A stretch of DNA of 64,000 bases. It comes from Eledone cirrhosa (Eukaryota). A program made the position numbers and the translations under genes. The stretch is from contig OZ024753.1 of the NCBI GenBank assembly GCA_964016885.1, positions 13,268,001 through 13,332,000 of the forward strand, given 5' to 3'. This document shows, piece by piece, positions 1-64,000 of this stretch. The stretch's first letter is position 1. The number at the start of each line of letters is the position of its first letter. The notes beneath the pieces are model-generated. The model was not told where the DNA came from. It ran no database searches and worked only from the letters and a program-made list of their open reading frames with translations.

Positions 1-3000
1 ACTCTGCCACTCTATCCCACATTCTAACCACTCTGCCATTCTACACCACATTCTAACCACTCTGCCATTCTACACCACATTCTAACCACTCTGCCATTCT
101 ATCCCACATTCTAACTACTCTGCCATTCTATCCCACATTCTAACCACTCTGCCATTCTACACCACATTCTAACCACTCTGCCATTCTACACCACATTCTA
201 ACCACTCTGCCATTCTATCCCACATTCTAACCACTCTGCCACTCTATCCCACATTCTAACCACTCTGCCATTCTACACCACATTCTAACCACTCTGCCAC
301 TTCTATCCCACATTCTAACCACTCTGCCATTCTATCCCACATTCTAACCACTCTGCCATTCTACACCACATTCTAACCACTCTGCCACTCTATCCCACAT
401 TCTAACCACTCTGCCATTCTACACCACATTCTAACCACTCTGCCATTCTACACCACATTCTAACCACTCTGCCACTCTATCCCACATTCTAACCACTCTG
501 CCATTCTACACCACATTCTAACCACTCTGCCATTCTATCCCACATTCTAACCACTCCGCCATTCTACACCACATTCTAACCACTCTGCCATTCTACACCA
601 CATTCTAACCACTCTGCCACTCTATCCCACATTCTAACCACTCTGCCATTCTACACCACATTCTAACCACTCTGCCATTCTATCCCACATTCTAACCACT
701 CTGCCATTCTACACCACATTCTAACCACTCTGCCATTCTATCCCACATTCTAACCACTCTGCCATTCTACACCACATTCTAACCACTCTGCCACTCTATC
801 CCACATTCTAACCACTCTGCCATTCTACACCACATTCTAACCACTCTGCCATTCTATCCCACATTCTAACCACTCTGCCATTCTACACCACATTCTAACC
901 ACTCTGCCATTCTACACCACATTCTAACCACTCTGCCACTCTATCCCACATTCTAACCACTCTGCCATTCTACACCACATTCTAACCACTCTGCCATTCT
1001 ACACCACATTCTAACCACTCTGCCATTCTATCCCACATTCTAACCACTCTGCCATTCTACACCACATTCTAACCACTCTGCCATTCTACACCACATTCTA
1101 ACCACTCTGCCATTCTATCCCACATTCTAACTACTCTGCCATTCTATCCCACATTCTAACCACTCTGCCACTCTATCCCACATTCTAACCACTCTGTCAT
1201 TCTACACCACATTCTAACCACTCTGCCACTCTATCCCACATTCTAACCACTCTGCCATTCTACACCACATTCTAACCACTCTGCCATTCTACACCACATT
1301 CTAACCACTCTGCCACTCTATCCCACATTCTAACCACTCTGCCATTCTACACCACATTCTAACCACTCTGCCACTCTATCCCACATTCTAACCACTCTGC
1401 CATTCTACACCACATTCTAACCACTCTGCCATTCTATCCCACATTCTAACCACTCTGCCATTCTATCCCACATTCTAACCACTCTGCCATTCTACACCAC
1501 ATTCTAACCACTCTGCCATTCTACACCACATTCTAACCACTCTGCCACTCTATCCCACATTCTAACCACTCTGCCATTCTATCCCACATTCTAACCACTC
1601 TGCCATTCTACACCACATTCTAACCACTCTGCCATTCTATCCCACATTCTAACCACTCTGCCACTCTATCCCACATTCTAACCACTCTGCCATTCTATCC
1701 CACATTCTAACCACTCTGCCATTCTATCCCACATTCTAACCACTCTGCCATTCTATCCCACATTCTAACCACTCTGCCATTCTACACCACATTCTAACCA
1801 CTCTGCCATTCTACACCACATTCTAACCACTCTGCCATTCTATCCCACATTCTAACCACTCTGCCATTCTATCCCACATTCTAACCACTCTGCCACTCTA
1901 TCCCACATTCTAACCACTCTGCCATTCTATCCCACATTCTAACCACTCTGCCATTCTATCCCACATTCTAACCACTCTGCCACTCTATCCCACATTCTAA
2001 CCACTCTGCCATTCTATCCCACATTCTAACCACTCTGCCATTCTACACCACATTCTAACCACTCTGCCATTCTATCCCACATTCTAACCACTCTGCCATT
2101 CTATCCCACATTCTAACCACTCTGCCATTCTACACCACATTCTAACCACTCTGCCATTCTATCCCACATTCTAACCACTCTGCCATTCTATCCCACATTC
2201 TAACCACTCTGCCATTCTACACCACATTCTAACCACTCTGCCATTCTACACCACATTCTAACCACTCTGCCATTCTATCCCACATTCTAACCACTCTGCC
2301 ATTCTATCCCACATTCTAACCACTCTGCCATTCTACACCACATTCTAACCACTCTGCCATTCTACACCACATTCTAACCACTCTGCCACTCTATCCCACA
2401 TTCTAACCACTCTGCCATTCTATCCCACATTCTAACCACTCTGCCATTCTACACCACATTCTAACCACTCTGCCATTCTATCCCACATTCTAACCACTCT
2501 GCCACTCTATCCCACATTCTAACCACTCTGCCATTCTATCCCACATTCTAACCACTCTGCCATTCTATCCCACATTCTAACCACTCTGCCATTCTATCCC
2601 ACATTCTAACCACTCTGCCATTCTACACCACATTCTAACCACTCTGCCATTCTACACCACATTCTAACCACTCTGCCATTCTACACCACATTCTAACCAC
2701 TCTGCCATTCTATCCCACATTCTAACCACTCTGCCATTCTATCCCACATTCTAACCACTCTGCCATTCTATCCCACATTCTAACCACTCTGCCATTCTAC
2801 ACCACATTCTAACCACTCTGCCATTCTACACCACATTCTAACCACTCTGCCATTCTATCCCACATTCTAACCACTCTGCCATTCTACACCACATTCTAAC
2901 CACTCTGCCATTCTACACCACATTCTAACCACTCTGCCACTCTATCCCACATTCTAACCACTCTGCCATTCTATCCCACATTCTAACCACTCTGCCATTC

Positions 3001-6000
3001 TACACCACATTCTAACCACTCTGCCATTCTATCCCACATTCTAACCACTCTGCCATTCTATCCCACATTCTAACCACTCTGCCATTCTACACCACATTCT
3101 AACCACTCTGCCATTCTACACCACATTCTAACCACTCTGCCACTCTATCCCACATTCTAACCACTCTGCCATTCTATCCCACATTCTAACCACTCTGCCA
3201 TTCTACACCACATTCTAACCACTCTGCCATTCTACACCACATTCTAACCACTCTGCCACTCTATCCCACATTCTAACCACTCTGCCATTCTACACCACAT
3301 TCTAACCACTCTGCCATTCTATCCCACATTCTAACCACTCTGCCACTCTATCCCACATTCTAACCACTCTGCCATTCTACACCACATTCTAACCACTCTG
3401 CCATTCTATCCCACATTCTAACCACTCTGCCATTCTATCCCACATTCTAACCACTCTGCCATTCTATCCCACATTCTAACTACTCTGCCATTCTACACCA
3501 CATTCTAACCACTCTGCCATTCTATCCCACATTCTAACCACTCTGCCATTCTACACCACATTCTAACCACTCTGCCATTCTACACCACATTCTAACCACT
3601 CTGCCACTCTATCCCACATTCTAACCACTCTGCCATTCTACACCACATTCTAACCACTCTGCCATTCTATCCAACATTCTAACCACTCTGCCACTCTATC
3701 CCACATTCTAACCACTCTGCCATTCTATCCCACATTCTAACCACTCTGCCATTCTACACCACATTCTAACCACTCTGCCATTCTATCCCACATTCTAACC
3801 ACTCTGCCATTCTACACCACATTCTAACCACTCTGCCATTCTATCCCACATTCTAACCACTCTGCCATTCTATCCCACATTCTAACCACTCTGCCACTCT
3901 ATCCCACATTCTAACCACTCTGCCATTCTATCCCACATTCTAACCACTCTGCCACTCTATCCCACATTCTAACCACTCTGCCATTCTATCCCACATTCTA
4001 ACCACTCTGCCATTCTACACCACATTCTAACCACTCTGCCATTCTATCCCACATTCTAACCACTGCCATTCTACACCACATTCTAACCACTCTGCCATTA
4101 TATCCCACATTCTAACCACTCTGCCACTCTATCCCACATTCTAACCACTCTGCCATTCTACACCACATTCTAACCACTCTGCCACTCTATCCCACATTCT
4201 AACCACTCTGCCATTCTATCCCACATTCTAACCACTCTGCCACTCTATCCCACATTCTAACCACTCTGCCATTCTATCCCACATTCTAACCACTCTGCCA
4301 TTATATCCCACATTCTAACCACTCTGCCATTATATCCCACATTCTAACCACTCTGCCACTCTATCCCACATTCTAACCACTCTGCCATTCTACACCACAT
4401 TCTAACCACTCTGCCACTCTATCCCACATTCTAACCACTCTGCCATTCTATCCCACATTCTAACCACTCTGCCACTCTATCCCACATTCTAACCACTCTG
4501 CCATTCTATCCCACATTCTAACCACTCTGCCATTCTACACCACATTCTAACCACTCTGCCACTCTATCCCACATTCTAACCACTCTGCCATTCTATCCCA
4601 CATTCTAACCACTCTGCCATTCTACACCACATTCTAACCACTCTGCCATTCTATCCCACATTCTAACCACTCTGCCATTCTACACCACATTCTAACCACT
4701 CTGCCACTCTATCCCACATTCTAACCACTCTGCCATTCTATCCCACATTCTAACCACTCTGCCATTCTACACCACATTCTAACCACTCTGCCATTCTATC
4801 CCACATTCTAACCACTCTGCCATTCTACACCACATTCTAACCACTCTGCCACTCTATCCCACATTCTAACCACTCTGCCATTCTATCCCACATTCTAACC
4901 ACTCTGCCATTCTATCCCACATTCTAACCACTCTGCCATTCTATCCCACATTCTAACCACTCTGCCACTCTATCCCACATTCTAACCACTCTGCCACTCT
5001 ATCCCACATTCTAACCACTCTGCCATTCTATCCCACATTCTAACTACTCTGCCATTCTATCCCACATTCTAACCACTCTGCCATTATATCCCACATTCTA
5101 ACCACTCTGCCACTCTATCCCACATTCTAACCACTCTGCCATTCTACACCACATTCTAACCACTCTGCCATTCTATCCCACATTCTAACCACTCTGCCAT
5201 TCTATCCCACATTCTAACCACTCTGCCATTCTACACCACATTCTAACCACTCTGCCATTCTATCCCACATTCTAACCACTCTGCCATTCTACACCGCATT
5301 CTAACCACTCTGCCATTCTACACCACATTCTAACCACTCTGCCACTCTATCCCACATTCTAACCACTCTGCCATTCTATCCCACATTCTAACCACTCTGC
5401 CATTCTACACCACATTCTAACCACTCTGCCATTCTACACCACATTCTAACCACTCTGCCACTCTATCCCACATTCTAACCACTCTGCCATTCTATCCCAC
5501 ATTCTAACCACTCTGCCATTCTACACCACATTCTAACCACTCTGCCATTCTATCCCACATTCTAACCACTCTGCCATTCTACACCACATTCTAACCACTC
5601 TGCCATTATATCCCACATTCTAACCACTCTGCCATTCTACACCACATTCTAACCACTCTGCCATTCTACACCACATTCTAACCACTCTGCCACTCTATAC
5701 CACATTCTAACCACTCTGCCATTCTATCCCACATTCTAACCACTCTGCCATTCTACACCACATTCTAACCACTCTGCCATTCTATCCCACATTCTAACCA
5801 CTCTGCCATTCTACACCACATTCTAACCACTCTGCCATTCTATCCCACATTCTAACCACTCTGCCATTCTACACCACATTCTAACCACTCTTCCATTCTA
5901 CACCACATTCTAACTACTCTGCCATTCTATCCCACATTCTAACCACTCTGCCATTCTATCCCACATTCTAACTACTCTGCCATTCTATCCCACATTCTAA

Positions 6001-9000
6001 CCACTCTGCCATTCTATCCCACATTCTAACCACTCTGCCATTCTACACCACATTCTAACCACTCTGCCATTCTATCCCACATTCTAACCACTCTGCCATT
6101 CTACACCACATTCTAACCACTCTGCCATTCTATCCCACATTCTAACCACTCTGCCATTCTACACCACATTCTAACCACTCTTCCATTCTACACCACATTC
6201 TAACCACTCTGCCATTCTATCCCACATTCTAACCACTCTGCCACTCTATCCCACATTCTAACCACTCTGCCATTCTATCCCACATTCTAACCACTCTGCC
6301 ATTCTATCCCACATTCTAACCACTCTGCCATTCTACACCACATTCTAACCACTCTGCCATTCTATCCCACATTCTAACCACTCTGCCACTCTATCCCACA
6401 TTCTAACCACTCTGCCACTCTATCCCACATTCTAACCACTCTGCCATTCTATCCCACATTCTAACCACTCTGCCATTCTACACCACATTCTAACCACTCT
6501 GCCATTCTACACCACATTCTAACCACTCTGCCATTCTACACCACATTCTAACCACTCTGCCATTCTACACCACATTCTAACCACTCTGCCATTCTACACC
6601 ACATTCTAACCACTCTGCCATTCTATCCCACATTCTAACTACTCTGCCACTCTATCCCACATTCTAACCACTCTGCCACTCTATCCCACATTCTAACCAC
6701 TCTGCCATTCTATCCCACATTCTAACTACTCTGCCATTCTATCCCACATTCTAACTACTCTGCCATTCTATCCCACATTCTAACTACTCTGCCATTCTAT
6801 CCCACATTCTAACCACTCTGCCACTCTATCCCACATTCTAACCACTCTGCCACTCTATCCCACATTCTAACCACTCTGCCATTCTATCCCACATTCTAAC
6901 CACTCTGCCATTCTATCCCACATTCTAACTACTCTGCCATTCTATCCCACATTCTAACCACTCTGCCATTCTATCCCACATTCTAACCACTCTGCCATTC
7001 TATCCCACATTCTAACTACTCTGCCATTCTATCCCACATTCTAACCACTCTGCCATTCTATCCCACATTCTAACCACTCTGCCATTCTACACCACATTCT
7101 AACCACTCTGCCATTCTACACCACATTCTAACCACTCTGCCATTCTACACCACATTCTAACCACTCTGCCATTCTACACCACATTCTAACCACTCTGCCA
7201 TTCTACACCACATTCTAACCACTCTGCCATTCTATCCCACATTCTAACCACTCTGCCATTCTATCCCACATTCTAACTACTCTGCCATTCTATCCCACAT
7301 TCTAACCACTCTGCCATTCTACACCACATTCTAACCACTCTGCCATTCTATCCCACATTCTAACCACTCTGCCATTCTATCCCACATTCTAACCACTCTG
7401 CCATTCTATCCCACATTCTAACTACTCTGCCATTCTATCCCACATTCTAACCACTCTGCCATTCTACACCACATTCTAACCACTCTGCCACTCTATCCCA
7501 CATTCTAACCACTCTGCCATTCTATCCCACATTCTAACCACTCTGCCATTCTACACCACATTCTAACCACTCTGCCATTCTACACCACATTCTAACCACT
7601 CTGCCATTCTACACCACATTCTAACCACTCTGCCATTCTACACCACATTCTAACCACTCTGCCATTCTACACCACATTCTAACCACTCTGCCATTCTACA
7701 CCACATTCTAACCACTCTGCCACTCTATCCCACATTCTAACCACTCTGCCATTCTATCCCACATTCTAACTACTCTGCCATTCTATCCCACATTCTAACT
7801 ACTCTGCCATTCTATCCCACATTCAAACTACTCTGCCATTCTATCCCACATTCTAACCACACTGCCACTCTATCCCACATTCTAACCACTCTGCCACTCT
7901 ATCCCACATTCTAACCACTCTGCCATTCTATCCCACATTCTAACCACTCTGCCATTCTATCCCACATTCTAACTACTCTGCCATTCTATCCCACATTCTA
8001 ACCACTCTGCCATTCTATCCCACATTCTAACCACTCTGCCATTCTACACCACATTCTAACCACTCTGCCATTCTACACCACATTCTAACCACTCTGCCAT
8101 TCTACACCACATTCTAACCACTCTGCCATTCTACACCACATTCTAACCACTCTGCCATTCTACACCACATTCTAACCACTCTGCCATTCTACACCACATT
8201 CTAACCACTCTGCCACTCTATCCCACATTCTAACTACTCTGCCATTCTATCCCACATTCTAACTACTCTGCCATTCTATCCCACATTCTAACCACTCTGC
8301 CACTCTATCCCACATTCTAACCACTCTGCCATTCTATCCCACATTCTAACTACTCTGCCACTCTATCCCACATTCTAACCACTCTGCCACTCTATCCCAC
8401 ATTCTAACCACTCTGCCATTCTATCCCACATTCTAACTACTCTGCCATTCTATCCCACATTCTAACCACTCTGCCACTCTATCCCACATTCTAACCACTC
8501 TGCCATTCTATCCCACATTCTAACCACTCTGCCATTCTATCCCACATTCTAACTACTCTGCCATTCTATCCCACATTCTAACCACTCTGCCACTCTATCC
8601 CACATTCTAACCACTCTGCCATTCTATCCCACATTCTAACTACTCTGCCACTCTATCCCACATTCTAACCACTCTGCCACTCTATCCCACATTCTAACCA
8701 CTCTGCCATTCTATCCCACATTCTAACTACTCTGCCATTCTATCCCACATTCTAACTACTCTGCCATTCTATCCCACATTCTAACCACTCTGCCACTCTA
8801 TCCCACATTCTAACCACTCTGCCATTCTATCCCACATTCTAACCACTCTGCCACTCTATCCCACATTCTAACCACTCTGCCATTCTATCCCACATTCTAA
8901 CCACTCTGCCATTCTATCCCACATTCTAACCACTCTGCCATTCTATCCCACATTCTAACCACTCTTCCATTCTATCCCACATTCTAACCACTCTGCCATT

Positions 9001-12000
9001 CTACACCACATTCTAACCACTCTGCCATTCTACACCACATTCTAACCACTCTGCCATTCTACACCACATTCTAACCACTCTGCCATTCTACACCACATTC
9101 TAACCACTCTGCCATTCTATCCCACATTCTAACCACTCTGCCATTCTATCCCACATTCTAACCACTCTGCCATTCTATCCCACATTCTAACCACTCTGCC
9201 ATTCTACACCACATTCTAACCACTCTGCCATTCTACACCACATTCTAACCACTCTTCCATTCTATCCCACATTCTAACCACTCTGCCATTCTACACCACA
9301 TTCTAACCACTCTGCCATTCTACACCACATTCTAACCACTCTGCCATTCTATCCCACATTCTAACCACTCTGCCATTCTACACCACATTCTAACCACTCT
9401 GCCATTCTACACCACATTCTAACCACTCTGCCATTCTACACCACATTCTAACCACTCTGCCATTCTACACCACATTCTAACCACTCTGCCATTCTACACC
9501 ACATTCTAACCACTCTGCCATTCTACACCACATTCTAACCACTCTGCCATTCTACACCACATTCTAACCACTCTGCCATTCTACACCACATTCTAACCAC
9601 TCTGCCATTCTACACCACATTCTAACCACTCTGCCATTCTACACCACATTCTAACCACTCTGCCACTCTATCCCACATTCTAACCACTCTGCCATTCTAC
9701 ACCACATTCTAACCACTCTGCCATTCTATCCCACATTCTAACCACTCTGCCATTCTATCCCACATTCTAACCACTCTGCCATTCTACACCACATTCTAAC
9801 CACTCTGCCATTCTACACCACATTCTAACCACTCTGCCATTCTACACCACATTCTAACCACTCTGCCATTCTATCCCACATTCTAACCACTCTGCCATTC
9901 TACACCACATTCTAACCACTCTGCCATTCTACACCACATTCTAACTACTCTGCCATTCTATCCCACATTCTAACCACTCTGCCATTCTATCCCACATTCT
10001 AACCACTCTGCCATTCTACACCACATTCTAACCACTCTGCCATTCTATCCCACATTCTAACTACTCTGCCATTCTATCCCACATTCTAACCACTCTGCCA
10101 TTCTATCCCACATTCTAACCACTCTGCCATTCTACACCACATTCTAACCACTCTGCCATTCTACACCACATTCTAACCACTCTGCCATTCTATCCCACAT
10201 TCTAACCACTCTGCCATTCTATCCCACATTCTAACCACTCTGCCATTCTACACCACATTCTAACCACTCTGCCATTCTACACCACATTCTAACCACTCTG
10301 CCATTCTATCCCACATTCTAACCACTCTGCCATTCTACACCACATTCTAACCACTCTGCCATTCTATCCCACATTCTAACCACTCTGCCATTCTATCCCA
10401 CATTCTAACCACTCTGCCATTCTACACCACATTCTAACCACTCTGCCATTCTACACCACATTCTAACCACTCTGCCACTCTATCCCACATTCTAACTACT
10501 CTGCCATTCTATCCCACATTCTAACTACTCTGCCATTCTATCCCACATTCTAACCACTCTGCCACTCTATCCCACATTCTAACCACTCTGCCATTCTATC
10601 CCACATTCTAACTACTCTGCCACTCTATCCCACATTCTAACCACTCTGCCACTCTATCCCACATTCTAACCACTCTGCCATTCTATCCCACATTCTAACT
10701 ACTCTGCCATTCTATCCCACATTCTAACCACTCTGCCACTCTATCCCACATTCTAACCACTCTGCCATTCTATCCCACATTCTAACCACTCTGCCATTCT
10801 ATCCCACATTCTAACTACTCTGCCATTCTATCCCACATTCTAACCACTCTGCCACTCTATCCCACATTCTAACCACTCTGCCATTCTATCCCACATTCTA
10901 ACTACTCTGCCACTCTATCCCACATTCTAACCACTCTGCCACTCTATCCCACATTCTAACCACTCTGCCATTCTATCCCACATTCTAACTACTCTGCCAT
11001 TCTATCCCACATTCTAACTACTCTGCCATTCTATCCCACATTCTAACCACTCTGCCACTCTATCCCACATTCTAACCACTCTGCCATTCTATCCCACATT
11101 CTAACCACTCTGCCACTCTATCCCACATTCTAACCACTCTGCCATTCTATCCCACATTCTAACCACTCTGCCATTCTATCCCACATTCTAACCACTCTGC
11201 CATTCTATCCCACATTCTAACCACTCTTCCATTCTATCCCACATTCTAACCACTCTGCCATTCTACACCACATTCTAACCACTCTGCCATTCTACACCAC
11301 ATTCTAACCACTCTGCCATTCTACACCACATTCTAACCACTCTGCCATTCTACACCACATTCTAACCACTCTGCCATTCTATCCCACATTCTAACCACTC
11401 TGCCATTCTATCCCACATTCTAACCACTCTGCCATTCTATCCCACATTCTAACCACTCTGCCATTCTACACCACATTCTAACCACTCTGCCATTCTACAC
11501 CACATTCTAACCACTCTTCCATTCTATCCCACATTCTAACCACTCTGCCATTCTACACCACATTCTAACCACTCTGCCATTCTACACCACATTCTAACCA
11601 CTCTGCCATTCTATCCCACATTCTAACCACTCTGCCATTCTACACCACATTCTAACCACTCTGCCATTCTACACCACATTCTAACCACTCTGCCATTCTA
11701 CACCACATTCTAACCACTCTGCCATTCTACACCACATTCTAACCACTCTGCCATTCTACACCACATTCTAACCACTCTGCCATTCTACACCACATTCTAA
11801 CCACTCTGCCATTCTACACCACATTCTAACCACTCTGCCATTCTACACCACATTCTAACCACTCTGCCATTCTACACCACATTCTAACCACTCTGCCATT
11901 CTACACCACATTCTAACCACTCTGCCACTCTATCCCACATTCTAACCACTCTGCCATTCTACACCACATTCTAACCACTCTGCCATTCTATCCCACATTC

Positions 12001-12830
12001 TAACCACTCTGCCATTCTATCCCACATTCTAACCACTCTGCCATTCTACACCACATTCTAACCACTCTGCCATTCTACACCACATTCTAACCACTCTGCC
12101 ATTCTACACCACATTCTAACCACTCTGCCATTCTATCCCACATTCTAACCACTCTGCCATTCTACACCACATTCTAACCACTCTGCCATTCTACACCACA
12201 TTCTAACTACTCTGCCATTCTATCCCACATTCTAACCACTCTGCCATTCTATCCCACATTCTAACCACTCTGCCATTCTACACCACATTCTAACCACTCT
12301 GCCATTCTATCCCACATTCTAACTACTCTGCCATTCTATCCCACATTCTAACCACTCTGCCATTCTATCCCACATTCTAACCACTCTGCCATTCTACACC
12401 ACATTCTAACCACTCTGCCATTCTACACCACATTCTAACCACTCTGCCATTCTATCCCACATTCTAACCACTCTGCCATTCTATCCCACATTCTAACCAC
12501 TCTGCCATTCTACACCACATTCTAACCACTCTGCCATTCTACACCACATTCTAACCACTCTGCCATTCTATCCCACATTCTAACCACTCTGCCATTCTAC
12601 ACCACATTCTAACCACTCTGCCATTCTATCCCACATTCTAACCACTCTGCCATTCTATCCCACATTCTAACCACTCTGCCATTCTACACCACATTCTAAC
12701 CACTCTGCCATTCTACACCACATTCTAACCACTCTGCCATTCTACACCACATTCTAACCACTCTGCCATTCTACACCACATTCTAACCACTCTGCCACTC
12801 TATCCCACATTCTAACCACTCTGCCATTCT
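1..12830. repeat. 29-bp tandem satellite, consensus ACTCTGCCATTCTATCCCACATTCTAACC (about 440 copies; runs off the left edge)
   Basis: Directly visible 29-bp period. Common variants are TTCTATCCC/TTCTACACC/CTCTATCCC and AACC/AACT. The array ends abruptly near 12830. Confidence 0.98.
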
Positions 12831-13145
12831 AACGACTCTGCCAATTCGCTACCTTTGCAAGTAGATACCGCTTGTAAATCATTGAAGAATTTTGTGAATT
12901 CGATTTATTCTGTTGAGATTTGCTCCATGTTTCACTGTAACATTTCAATGAAATATTCTTGAAATACATATAGTTTCCCGGCTTTTGTTTCGCTTTGGCC
13001 TGGCAAATAAATATCAACAACCCGATAGACAACCACCACAAAAGAATTAAACTTGCGTCGTTTATCTCAACGATGTGTGGAAATTGATTAAGAAAGAAGT
13101 TAAGAAGTAAACGAATATATTCTAAAAACAAAGTTCTTTAACGTG

Positions 13146-14860: not shown

Positions 14861-14917
14861 TAAATGTAAGTATGTATGTATACGTACATACATATATGTA
14901 TACAGACGTACAGTAGC

Positions 14918-14956
<39 letters not shown>

Positions 14957-15189
14957 CATGCAGGTACACATACATATATGCACGCATCAGTTTAGCAGAC
15001 GCTTATTATAGCGCTGCTTTGTTAGTTTGTCAACAAACTGAACAGCCTGTAAAAAGGTGACGTGGTTGCCTTAACACCGTATGGCATAAATTCAGGCTGT
15101 TCAGTTTGTTGACAAACTAACAAAGCAGCGCTATAATAAGCGTCTGCTAAACTGATGCGTGCATATATGTATGTGTACCTGCATGTATG

Positions 15190-15224
<35 letters not shown>

Positions 15225-15466
15225 GCTACTGTACGTCTGTATACATATATGTATGTACGTATACATACATACTTACATTTAAGTAAGTGCCATACTAAGA
15301 GTGAGAAATGAAATTTCGTTTTTCGTTTTCATTTTTTTCAACTTATCGTTTTCGGTATGCCTGACCGATTTAACTCACTCAATATGCAAATTAGGCTGCT
15401 CAGCCGTTAATTTTCATAAGGAAAGTATATACTTTCGAACGTTCAACTATCTGGCAGATGGGTAAA

Positions 15467-15507
15467 CGGTGCTGATGATAGCTAACAAGCTTGAAACAAG
15501 TACATCG
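15467..15507 (+). ncRNA. Minimal type I hammerhead ribozyme
   Basis: CGGTG-CTGATGA-T-AGCT(AACA)AGCT-T-GAAAC-AA-GTA-CATCG. Stem I CGGTG/CATCG, intact core, GUA cleavage triplet. Confidence 0.8.
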
Positions 15508-15937
15508 ATCCTGTGTCAGTGTTGAACAAAAAGGTGACGTGGTTGCCTTAACACCGTATGGCATAAATTCAGGCTGTTCAGTTTGTTGACAAACTAACAA
15601 AGCAGCGCTATAATAAGCGTCTGCTAAACTGATGCGTGCATATATGTATGTGTACCTGCATGTATGTATATATATATATATATATATATATACATGCTAC
15701 TGTACGTCTGTATACATATATGTATGTACGTATACATACATACTTACATTTAAGTAAGTGCCATACTAAGAGTGAGAAATGAAATTTCGTTTTTCGTTAT
15801 CATTTTTTTCAACTTATCGTTTTCGGTATGCCTGACCGATTTAACTCACTCAATATGCAAATTAGGCTGCTCAGCCGTTAATTTTCATAAGGAAAGTATA
15901 TACTTTCGAACGTTCAACTATCTGGCAGATGGGTAAA

Positions 15938-15978
15938 CGGTGCTGATGATAGCTAACAAGCTTGAAACAAGTACATCG
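15938..15978 (+). ncRNA. Minimal type I hammerhead ribozyme (second tandem copy)
   Basis: Identical to 15467-15507, 471 bp downstream. Confidence 0.8.
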
Positions 15979-16411
15979 ATCCTGTGTCAGTGTTGAACAA
16001 AAAGGTGACGTGGTTGCCTTAACACCGTATGGCAGAAATTCAGGCTGTTCAGTTTGTTGACAAACTAACAAAGCAGCGCTATAATAAGCGTCTGCTAAAC
16101 TGATGCGTGCATATATGTATGTGTACCTGCATGTATGTATATATATATATATATATATATACATGCTACTGTACGTCTGTATACATATATGTATGTACGT
16201 ATACATACATACTTACATTTAAGTAAGTGCCATACTAAGAGTGAGAAATGAAATTTCGTTTTTCGTTATCATTTTTTTCAACTTATATATATAAACATAT
16301 ATATATATATAGACATATATATATATATAAACACATACTTACATTTAAGTAAGTGCCATACTAAGAGTAAGAAATGAAATTTCGTTTTTCGTTATCATTT
16401 TTTTCAACTTA

Positions 16412-21515
<5,104 letters not shown>

Positions 21516-21741
21516 ATGGTGGCTGCCAACTCGTTTTCGAGTATGGCCACTACTTTATATCCATGTAGGAGAACTCCTACCGATACGCTGAACGAGTGTG
21601 ACTTTTTAGTCCAGCCAGCGACTTGAAAACTCTGGTACAAACACCACACTTGTGACAATTATTGACACATAGTGCTGGGGCCATGGTACCATGTGACGAC
21701 AAGTACAGAGATCTCCAGATATAAAGCAATGCCTGTGCCGT
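21516..21741 (-). mobile_element. 3' fragment of the RTE-derived non-autonomous element (same family as 51379-51988)
   Basis: Near-identical to 51379-51605. The minus strand carries a C2H2-like remnant ([18 protein letters not shown]) and the CTCG-AAAA-CGAG 3' hairpin. Confidence 0.85.
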
Positions 21742-22150
21742 TATTTGTTTTTATCGTCTCCGCTGAACCGGTGCGTACTCACACTCTATGCAAATTAGTC
21801 TGCCCACTACTAATTTTCATAGAAAAAGCATATAACGATATGTGCTTTTACAATTCTCCAGAAGCGCCGGTAGATAGGTAAATATTGCTGATGAGTTGTA
21901 ACAACAACGAAACTAGTTCAATATTCCTTGTCTGGCTTTTTGGAGAATAGAGGGAAGGTGTTCCCCCGAAAACCAGTATGACTCTAAAAACCCGTTTGTC
22001 TGTGTGTTTACATACAGAATAGCTGGGCTGCTCACAGTAAAGCATCCAGTGAAAGACTTGGTACACCTACATATGTATACGTGTGTGTATTCATATACAC
22101 ACTAGTATTTCAGTATGCATATGTAGATGTACATTTTTAACTTAATTGTT
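21742..22150 (+). mobile_element. Divergent monomer of the 471-bp hammerhead element family
   Basis: Shares colinear blocks with 15345-15640: TTATCGT, ACTCAC, TATGCAAATTAG.CTGC, TAATTTTCATA, GG.AGAT.GGTAAA, then the hammerhead. Confidence 0.7.
21881..21925 (+). ncRNA. Minimal type I hammerhead ribozyme
   Basis: AATATTG-CTGATGA-GTTGT(AACA)ACAAC-GAAAC-TA-GTT-CAATATT. Perfect 7-bp stem I, 5-bp stem II, palindromic stem III (AACTAGTT). Confidence 0.9.
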
Positions 22151-23200
<1,050 letters not shown>

Positions 23201-60507: not shown

Positions 60508-60816
60508 ACATTATGGTCGTATAAAAACTCACTCTTACAATCAAGCACAGACGCGATTTCAGCAAGTCTCTTCATCTTACTCGATATTCCTCTTACTCTA
60601 AAAATCATAATGAAAAGACTATGCTGTCTATTCCAGGTATTTCGTTCCACACTTTCAGCCAAATATATATAGATTAATCTATATATGTATTTATAACTAT
60701 CTCTCCATATTTACTTGGAAACACAAGCTGTCTCTCTATCTCACAATTTCCATCCCACCAGTCCTTTCTCACCACCATAGACTCATCGACCAATCAAATC
60801 ACAGCAACAGAAATAT

Positions 60817-60988
60817 ATCTCCACCTATCACCAACAAACGCTGTTACTACTACTACTACTACTATCTCCACCTATCACCAACAAACGCTGTTACTACTAC
60901 TACTACTACTACTATCTCCACCTATCACCAACAAACCCTGTTACTACTACTACTACTACTATCTCCACCTACCACCAACAAACGCTGT

Positions 60989-61029
<41 letters not shown>

Positions 61030-64000
61030 TCTCCACCTATCACCAACAACGCTGTTACTACTACTACTACTACTATCTCCACCTATTACCAACAAACCCT
61101 GTTACTACTACTACTACTACTACTACTACTATCTCCACCTATTACCAACAAACCCTGTTACTACTACTACTACTACTATCTCCACCTATTACCAACAACC
61201 CTGTTACTACTACTACTACTACTACTACTATCTCCACCTACCACCAACAAACGCTGTTACTACTACTACTACTACTACTACTACTATCTCCACCTATCAC
61301 CAACAAACGCTGTTACTACTACTACTACTATCTCCACCTATCACCAACAAACGCTGTTACTACTACTACTACTATCTCCACCTACCACCAACAAACGCTG
61401 TTACTACTACTACTACTAACTATCTCCACCTACCACCAACAAACGCTGTTACTACTACTACTACTACTACTATCTCCACCTATCACCAACAAACGCTGTT
61501 ACTACTACTACTACTACTATCTCCACCTATCACCAACAAACGCTGTTACTACTACTACTACTACTATCTCCACCTATCACCAACAAACGCTGTTACTACT
61601 ACTACTACTACTATCTCCACCTATCACCAACAAACGCTGTTACTACTACTACTACTACTACTATCTCCACCTATCACCAACAAACGCTGTTACTACTACT
61701 TCTACTACTACTACTATCTCCACCTATCACCAACAAACGCTGTTACTACTACTACTACTACTATCTCACCTATTACCAACAAACGCTGTTACTACTACTA
61801 CTACTACTATCTCCACCTATCACCAACAAACGCTGTTACTACTACTACTACTACTATCTGCACCTATTACCAACAAACCCTGTTACTACTACTACTACTA
61901 CTACTACTATCTCCACCTACCACCAACAAACGCTGTTACTACTACTACTACTACTATCTCCACCTATTACCAACAAACGCTGTTACTACTACTACTACTA
62001 CTACTACTACTATCTCCACCTATCACCAACAAACGCTGTTACTACTACTACTACTACTATCTCCACCTATTACCAACAAACCTGTTACTACTACTACTAC
62101 TACTACTACTATCTCCACCTACACCAACAAACGCTGTTACTACTACTACTACTACTATCTCCACCTATCACCAACAAACGCTGTTACTACTACTACTACT
62201 ACTATCTCCACCTATCACCAACAAACGCTGTTACTACTACTACTACTACTATCTCCACCTATCACCAACAAACGCTGTTACTACTACTACTACTACTACT
62301 ATCTCCACCTATCACAACAAACGCTGTTACTACTACTACTACTACTATCTCCACCTATCACCAACAAACGCTGTTACTACTACTACTACTACTACTATCT
62401 CCACCTATCACCAACAAATGCCGTTACTACTACTACTACTACTATCTCCACCTATCACCAACAAACGCTGTTACTACTACTACTACTACTATCTCCACCT
62501 ATCACCAACAAACGCTGTTCTACTACTACTACTACTACTATCTCCACCTACCACCAACAAACGCTGTTACTACTACTACTACTATCTCCACCTATCACCA
62601 ACAAACGCTGTTACTACTACTACTACTACTATCTCCACCTATCAGCAACAAATGCTGTTACTACTACTACTACTATCTCCACCTATCACCAACAAACGCT
62701 GTTACTACTACTACTACTACTATCTCCACCTATCACCAACAAACGCTGTTACTACTACTACTACTACTATCTCCACCTATCACCAACAAACGCTGTTACT
62801 ACTACTACTACTACTATCTCCACCTATCACCAACAAACGCTGTTACTACTACTACTACTACTACTATCTCCACCTATCACCAACAAACGCTGTTACTACT
62901 ACTTCTACTACTACTACTATCTGCACCTATTACCAACAAACCCTGTTACTACTACTACTACTACTACTACTATCTCCACCTACCACCAACAAACGCTGTT
63001 ACTACTACTACTACTACTATCTCCACCTATTACCAACAAACGCTGTTACTACTACTACTACTACTACTACTACTATCTCCACCTATCACCAACAAACGCT
63101 GTTACTACTACTACTACTACTATCTCCACCTATTACCAACAAACCCTGTTACTACTACTACTACTACTACTATCTCCACCTACCACCAACAAACGCTGTT
63201 ACTACTACTACTACTACTATCTCCACCTATCACCAACAAACGCTGTTACTACTACTACTACTACTATCTCCACCTATCACCAACAAACGCTGTTACTACT
63301 ACTACTACTACTATCTCCACCTATCACCAACAAACGCTGTTACTACTACTACTACTACTACTATCTCCACCTATCACCAACAAACGCTGTTACTACTACT
63401 ACTACTACTATCTCCACCTATCACCAACAAACGCTGTTACTACTACTACTACTACTACTATCTCCACCTATCACCAACAAATGCCGTTACTACTACTACT
63501 ACTACTATCTCCACCTATCACCAACAAACGCTGTTACTACTACTACTACTACTATCTCCACCTATCACCAACAAACGCTGTTACTACTACTACTACTACT
63601 ACTATCTCCACCTACCACCAACAAACGCTGTTACTACTACTACTACTATCTCCACCTATCACCAACAAACGCTGTTACTACTACTACTACTACTATCTCC
63701 ACCTATCAGCAACAAATGCTGTTACTACTACTACTACTATCTCCACCTATCACCAACAAACGCTGTTACTACTACTACTACTACTACTATCTCCACCTAT
63801 CACCAACAAACGCTGTTACTACTACTACTACTACTATCTCCACCTATCACCAACAAACGCTGTTACTACTACTACTACTACTACTATCTCCACCTATCAC
63901 CAACAAACGCTGTTACTCTACTACTACTACTACTATCTCCACCTATCACCAACAAACGTTGTTACTACTACTACTACTACTACTATCTCCACCTATCACC
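60817..64000. repeat. Compound minisatellite: ATCTCCACCTATCACCAACAAACGCTGTT + (ACT)n with variable n; runs off the right edge
   Basis: Directly visible 29-bp core with a variable trinucleotide spacer. Confidence 0.97.

Follow-up and report, generated by a model that had tools for sequence, protein, structure and literature searches.

Animal retrozymes leave two questions open: how they are transcribed, a 2020 review stating that they seem to lack a promoter (PMC7761336), and what mobilises them, Penelope-type elements (PLEs) having been proposed. Both questions are raised by a short repeat with a hammerhead ribozyme in the 64,000-nucleotide stretch of the Eledone cirrhosa genome analysed here (the window). 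Our preferred reading, which we hold to be probable, is that this repeat is a retrozyme with an internal host snRNA-type promoter, whose RNA would cleave itself, circularise and be inserted into (TA)n by a PLE.

The copy and its immediate surroundings are organized as follows:

21739..22150, plus strand: monomer of retrozyme family B, truncated at its 5' end so that it spans unit positions 56-467 of 467; it stops at the 'unit-end' site and is followed by (TA)n
21739..21754, plus strand: 3' remnant of the 71-nt 'tail' segment, containing the T5-AT end
21747-21754, plus strand: T5-AT end, the second fixed insertion end of family B
21520..21741, minus strand: adjoining RTE-like LINE, represented by its 3' fragment (C2H2 zinc finger end); it lies outside the element, head to head with the B copy

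The original prediction had placed the copy at 21742..22150; its end was correct, and the true start is 21739. It had also described the copy as a divergent sibling of a 471-bp element (family A) present elsewhere in the window. As the copy covers unit positions 56-467 and differs from the family B majority by just 4 substitutions across 412 nt, it is a recent truncated member of family B and not a decayed sibling of family A. The 221 bases on the 5' side were considered as part of the element and rejected, being an unrelated LINE end on the other strand.

The family B repeat unit is 467 bp long, has a GC content of 37.5% and occurs in tandem arrays with 467-bp spacing on many contigs. Used as a genome query, the family B region gave 133 matches with 96-100% identity, drawn from 40 of 3,015 candidates. 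In the 3.0 Gb of genome searched, which contains many AT microsatellites, the exact 28-letter hammerhead pattern of family B was matched 5,243 times, against 0 with a reversed control. ATG open reading frames of at least 50 amino acids are absent from three of four tandem units, and the fourth has one 71-aa ATG frame. Family B is a young protein-free hammerhead repeat, a family in its own right with more than 5,000 exact motif matches. Pieces of families B and C, mostly with 90-99% identity, were also seen in six sequencing runs labelled as other organisms (X5-X10) when these were compared with L017:1446-2400 and window positions 21500-22200, at a depth near 190 in two of them and at low depth, possibly by carry-over, in four.

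The ribozyme of the window copy comprises the following parts:

21878..21927, plus strand: type I hammerhead, with GUA bulge, 7-bp stem I, CUGAUGA, 5-bp stem II, AACA loop and GAAA
within 21878..21927, plus strand: hammerhead stem III, 2 bp and palindromic
after 21918 (GUU), plus strand: cleavage site predicted from the hammerhead layout

Compared with the 471-bp unit, stem I changes from CGGTG/CATCG to AATATTG (21881-21887)/CAATATT (21919-21925), and stem II from AGCT-AACA-AGCT to GTTGT-AACA-ACAAC (21895-21908), with the catalytic core kept (CTGATGA at 21888, GAAA at 21909). Every letter of this swap, as first described, is present in the sequence; the AACA loop, said to be kept, is indeed found in both of these units and is replaced by AATA and others in the wider lineage. 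The hammerhead core pattern has six matches in the window where 0.16 are expected, the B core lying at 21888-21912. Two further matches belong to other repeat families (36827-36850, plus strand; 33635-33657, minus strand). The Rfam model Hammerhead_HH9 (RF02275, clan CL00010) aligns with 21870-21941 over its entire length (38.8 bits, E 2e-8), and the match takes in the stems, the core and the GUA bulge. It falls short of the model's gathering score (52), and at gathering thresholds nothing in Rfam passes anywhere in the window. Unlike the model, stem III has no loop, and family A reaches just 13.9 bits.

In a 12-copy alignment (12 real copies from 11 families) for which the structure was set by hand, stems I and II contain seven pairs with a two-sided change, and 85.5% of their cells are paired, compared with 32-46% after sliding. 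The covariation proposed from two units was thus upheld for the ribozyme stems in this 12-row alignment. The usual 10.1-11.1 pair is absent in nine of the 12 rows and present in B (G-C); family A has U-U there. Stem III keeps its palindrome in all of families A, B and F (ACTAGT to ACATGT), a layout characteristic of dimer-type hammerheads (PMC4209133).

In every feature that can be tested, the element agrees with the metazoan non-LTR retrozymes as defined by Cervera and de la Pena 2020 (PMC7229834). It forms non-coding tandem units with a GC content below 45% and a type I hammerhead; these range from monomers to long multimers, are dispersed, have no LTR, are predicted to be highly self-paired and co-occur with PLEs. 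Its unit of 467 bp compares with 170-400 nt for the retrozymes of that paper, and lies within the range of 51-972 bp given by Li, Clavereau and Pollet 2026 (bioRxiv 10.64898/2026.07.22.740005). A precedent for a promoter within such a repeat is newt satellite 2, for which an snRNA-type Pol II promoter was described by Coats, Zhang and Epstein 1994, as cited in PMC2220036. Both are hammerhead tandem repeats with an internal snRNA-type promoter, in the present case a candidate one; compared by description, they differ in phylum and in the combination, here, of a host Pol III-gene motif with a TATA-like box. An undescribed structured RNA family of a new kind, suggested beforehand as a possibility, is not supported, given the retrozyme features and the newt precedent; as both were already known, our result refines rather than overturns the current picture. 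A literature search that covered few subscription papers returned no description of this family or of an invertebrate retrozyme promoter; the supplements of PMC7229834 and bioRxiv 10.64898/2026.07.22.740005, outside that search, may list related species.

By pattern searches, about 13 related families were recovered for the family B lineage, and the further families obtained in this way are C (C1 and C2), A2, D1-D3, E, F, G, I and H. The stem II of family C is GATGT/ACATC; its pattern has 4,122 matches, and 99 of the first 100 listed are family C. A search through the whole octamer hairpin described below returned 50 matches, all read as A and B variants. Some arrays are long, with about 31 consecutive units at one place. 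Family A is represented in the window by a two-armed insertion:

14862..16286: family A (471-bp) two-armed insertion, of which the minus arm, 14862-15049, ends at the unit end
15051-16286, plus strand: family A plus arm, ending at the tail end
16347-16412: local duplicate of the family A tail

B-lineage insertions consist of two 5'-truncated arms arranged head to head, each running into (TA)n. In a census of only those 3' ends with TA-rich sequence after them, all 71 distinct B-lineage ends map to one of two positions, 34 to the unit end and 37 to a site about 70 nt beyond it, and two-armed insertions carry one of each in 24 of 24 cases. In the A lineage, 101 of 105 ends fall into two classes and 15 of 19 rows are mixed pairs; the pairing is less clean there because an internal TA hairpin blurs it. 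Variants were common to both arms at 27/69 within loci versus 47/1,124 across loci for B, 34/71 versus 44/466 for C1, and 30/38 versus 62/219 for C2. Such sharing fits a single template, and fits one source locus or later conversion equally. The 5' ends of the arms, inspected by eye, show no obvious clustering at the predicted start or cleavage site. At one locus (L013), where family B is inserted in another repeat, (TA)n is present on one side only, beside an apparent short target duplication; the insertion itself may create or expand the microsatellite.

An inverted arm, a one-sided tail and microsatellite targets form the signature of PLEs (PMC8557442), and in vitro, PLE reverse transcription starts at two sites bounding the tail (PMC11167929). 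With the EN+ clades of PLEs the retrozymes share 5' truncation, partial tandems and an inverted 5' arm (PMC8557442; PMC11167929; PMC4209133), together with the tail at one end, the (TA)n targets and the two tail-bounding sites (PMC8557442; PMC11167929). Two young PLE families of the host behave in the same way: their 3' ends lie 35-40 nt apart, with one of each in 6 of 6 two-arm loci. Unlike PLEs, the retrozymes have no ORF, their tail is about 66-71 nt long against 30-40 in PLEs, and their hammerhead is canonical rather than minimal. At one locus (L265:2152-5890; G000:C1:41487500-41495500), a retrozyme arm abuts a PLE arm with no host DNA between them. The retrozyme arm has the tail end, about 2.7 units and a 40-nt inverted piece; the PLE arm is 5'-truncated with the short 3' end, and both outer ends of the insertion lie in (TA)n. 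This chimera is a single case, which two insertions and a deletion could also explain. Retrozyme pieces beside PLE1 at two other loci (L122, L142) were considered as chimeras and rejected, being nested or adjacent insertions. At the window copy, the LINE 3' fragment and the B copy overlap by 3 nt at their joint, and both 3' ends lie in TA-type repeat; the joint may mark a chimera of another type, or two insertions with a deletion. Judged by these footprints, PLE-type mobilisation of the retrozyme is likely. Earlier proposals of PLE mobilisation drew on co-occurrence and phylogeny (PMC7229834; bioRxiv 10.64898/2026.07.22.740005), whereas here the support for PLEs as the mobiliser comes from where the insertions end and from a single chimera.

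The same PLE-like tail, inversion and (TA)n target would be expected if the repeat were the detached pseudo-LTR (pLTR) of an autonomous Penelope family that has escaped sampling, and many Xenopus retrozymes are homologous to pLTRs (bioRxiv 10.64898/2026.07.22.740005). That the sequence might simply be the pLTR of a catalogued Penelope family had been named beforehand as a possible refutation. Among the matches listed, the retrozymes resemble the bodies of the two autonomous PLEs that were compared (PLE1, PLE2) in microsatellite only, so a pLTR origin is unsupported, and in these two families no retrozyme unit flanks the RT/GIY-YIG ORF in the same orientation with homologous ends. The two families come from a protein search with 39,880 genome candidates, which leaves such an origin some room. 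Of 204 loci that lie outside the PLE set, some of them overlapping, just three matched the PLE protein, one of these being the chimera and one split by microsatellite. The ribozyme, moreover, has the canonical loop-loop architecture and differs in this from the minimal hammerhead of PLEs (PMC4209133). We give a pLTR origin very little credence, and retain a retrozyme moved by PLE enzymes.

The window itself contains a 5'-truncated young PLE (41631-44352, minus strand) with 412 aa that include the RT end and a GIY-YIG-like region. Full copies have a 777-aa frame, with 101 scored matches without stops and 3' ends about 35 nt apart. Pfam returned no family for the window fragment; its PLE label is based on the RT and GIY-YIG-like motifs recognized by eye and on the insertion layout. 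In both PLE 3' UTRs, a hammerhead-like layout was noted by eye (window, about 41775-41812, minus strand; L265, about 5740-5775): TTGAAAA in the place of CUGANGA, with a short stem after it and then a segment that reads GAAAC- or GCAAC-CGGT.

The RNA of the unit is predicted to fold well beyond the ribozyme. In the window copy, the predicted elements are:

21824..21849, plus strand: 'upstream hairpin', carrying TATAA at 21831, 43 nt from the octamer start (see below)
21853..21948, plus strand: extended stem I arm around the hammerhead
21952-21965, plus strand: small hairpin
21976-21983, plus strand: 3' strand of a long-range helix, whose partner falls in the part missing from the window copy
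21991..22026, plus strand: 'downstream hairpin', with inner stem 21999-22018
22061..22132, plus strand: long AU-rich bulged hairpin, with the same layout in family A

Both flanking hairpins, which had been said to covary between the two families, are present; the upstream pair is co-located but of unequal length, and is not compensatory column by column. Matches of miRNA families to the AU-rich hairpin were dismissed, their scores being far under the Rfam threshold. Circular folds of the A and B units have about eleven helices in identical order, with 258 of 513 global-alignment columns identical. The folding z-scores of the units range from -6 to -14, and the predicted plus-strand fold is more stable than its reverse complement in four of four families. 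We placed the substitutions of one family on the confident pairs (p>0.7) of another and compared the number of broken pairs with 5,000 random placements. No pair is broken for B against C1 (null 5.2), 1 against C2 (null 12.1+-2.5) and 17 against A (null 34.6), and 6, 6, 3 and 6 for A against A2, D1, D2 and E, respectively (null 15-19; p<=0.001 in all cases); these comparisons involve shared ancestry and majority sequences, and conservation of stem sequence alone also reduces breakage. Two-sided changes exceed the null for B against A (13 versus 3.6, p 0.0002) and for B-C (p about 0.03), with no excess inside the A lineage (p 0.26-0.6). Since the changes that separate the families tend to spare predicted helices throughout the unit, an RNA structure larger than the ribozyme and maintained by selection is supported by these models, as the original prediction had proposed.

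An ordinary satellite spread by DNA recombination, with hairpins left by palindrome repair rather than kept for an RNA function, could also give long arrays such as the one with about 31 units, and AT-rich inverted repeats fold readily. Such a satellite does not account for 5'-truncated copies that have fixed 3' ends and are dispersed over many contigs, for the many one-sided changes that preserve pairing, for the folding advantage of the plus strand or for a catalytic core that is intact across families, and the two-end rule already largely refutes it. We find it hardly credible as an explanation, and continue with a structured retrozyme RNA.

What would transcribe this RNA is suggested by a conserved octamer ahead of the ribozyme:

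21787..21799, plus strand: TATGCAAATTAG motif (octamer 21788-21795), matching the upstream motif of host U6, RNase MRP and U6atac; putative promoter element
21785..21823, plus strand: octamer-containing inverted repeat, predicted to form a hairpin in B and A, not in F
near 21862, plus strand: start site predicted from host spacing

The octamer, ATGCAAAT, is present at 15384, 15855 and 21788, as had been noted; the first two positions lie in tandem repeats of a single unit, which makes this a comparison of two families rather than three. Five octamers in the window against 3.6 expected is chance level, and it is the homologous position that counts. One family search required the octamer and is circular for its conservation; in an octamer-free search, 24 of 30 rows being listed, an exact octamer lies within 130 nt upstream in 10 and a one-mismatch octamer in 3, and the other listed rows are truncated, inverted, divergent or from different families. 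Family G (L242, L243), which is old, has about three octamer-like modules with a 33-nt period ahead of the ribozyme. Family H (two copies; L157, L172) is a hammerhead repeat without the octamer, and has TCAGT followed by TATAAG 26 nt later.

In the host, ATGC(A/T)AAT is found at -76 to -78 and TATA at -30 in three dissimilar U6 loci and in RNase MRP, and the best U6atac match has the same motif with one mismatch. The octamer motif was found in 0 of 20 rows for U1, U2, U4, U5 and RNase P within the 300 nt searched. A matrix built from five host promoters selected for having the motif has its top score at the plus-strand octamer in all families but H (11 of 12; p<=0.01), and reaches 15-19 bits there, comparable to the host promoters' own scores. 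Outside this matrix, the motif is absent from 2 of the 5 top U6 places, from 9 of the 9 readable among 12 weaker U6 matches left out (110 nt scanned) and from 5 of 6 U6atac matches; we assume that most of these motif-free matches are retrocopies. Genome-wide, the octamer-TATA pattern has 56,811 matches, with some double counting, against 2,173 for the control.

The polymerase is less clearly indicated. The TATA-like box of the retrozymes follows the octamer by 42-44 nt, against 46-48 nt for the Pol III genes of the host. It lies 26-27 nt from the TCAG element, as in U1/U2 (25-27). With either spacing, the predicted start falls close to the 5' boundary of the ribozyme arm. Where a Pol II element would be expected to lie, a host Pol II matrix reaches significance for just two of the 12 families (F, p 0.04; G, p 0.005) and for neither B nor A; family B has CCACT in the place of the Pol II YCAG element. 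With the Pol III spacing off and the Pol II matrix significant only in F and G, neither polymerase fits cleanly. Runs of T5-T8 stop Pol III. Most families have such runs in the tail (T5 in B, T6-T8 in the A lineage), and because inserted copies hold entire units including them, and the octamer-TATA spacing is 4-5 nt below that of host Pol III genes, Pol II would be slightly favoured over Pol III. The promoter of newt satellite 2 uses an octamer and a PSE.

These imperfect fits leave room for a retrozyme mobilised by PLEs but lacking a promoter of its own, whose RNA would arise by host read-through and whose octamer would be a strand of an RNA hairpin or an RNA-protein site. The octamer helix is predicted with a pairing probability of 0.96-0.99 in B, C2, A, D1 and E, and family H manages without the octamer. 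The TATA spacing departs by 4-5 nt from the host Pol III value, family B gives no significant match to the Pol II matrix, and metazoan retrozymes seem to be without promoters according to PMC7761336, from which the promoter-like block inside the present unit would set it apart. However, a pure helix should covary, and two-sided changes affect 0 of 11 pairs, the 5' octamer strand being almost fixed and its 3' partner variable; the motif is kept in family F although the helix is not predicted there, and is multiplied in family G; and the host promoter motif is matched in both sequence and orientation, with a TATA-like box downstream. We regard transcription by read-through as unlikely. As the octamer hairpin is well predicted in B, A and D, the octamer may still have a role in the RNA. 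The octamer-dependent promoter put forward in the original prediction is, as a candidate, the likeliest reading, and a captured host snRNA-type promoter within each retrozyme unit appears likely from the motif comparison.

Put together, a retrozyme with its own promoter would propagate as follows. The octamer motif and TATA-like box would start transcription where the ribozyme arm begins, about 74 nt past the octamer, and the transcript would read into the next unit, so that a monomer keeps the promoter. Neighbouring hammerheads would cleave as dimers through their 2-bp palindromic stem III, releasing a monomeric RNA of 467 nt, linear or circular, that would fold into about 11 helices. A pair of PLE enzymes would then prime both target ends at the two tail-flanking sites, usually on one template. 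A more specific version, which we hold only tentatively and would put somewhat below an even chance, is that of a self-promoting circular-RNA lineage copied by PLEs, in which one stretch of about 60 nt would serve as a hybrid snRNA promoter in DNA and as two hairpins in RNA. The host Pol III octamer motif would there be combined with the spacing of Pol II promoters, so that oligo-T could be read through, and the two tail-flanking sites would be used once each at a (TA)n break, even with arms from retrozyme and PLE RNAs; tens of thousands of octamer-TATA modules would be spread across the genome.

Family B offers a mapped candidate promoter that matches host Pol III genes. A by-product is an outline of the U6-type promoter of the host animal, useful for expression tools: TATG(C/G)(A/T)AAT(T/G)AG at -76 to -78 and TATA at -30 in the host Pol III genes (L286, L287, L288, L347, L327). 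The host snRNA promoters fall into two clear groups, and those of U1, U2, U4 and U5 carry YCAG around -57, followed after 25-27 nt by a TATA-like box, and often AATTAAAT near -90. Loci with promoters of this non-U6 type are L266-L268, L315-L320, L333-L345 and L348, and RNase P RNA looks Pol II-like. Finally, satellites occupy window positions 1-12831 and 60816-64000, with repeat units of 29 bp (442 copies) and 47 bp (65 copies).
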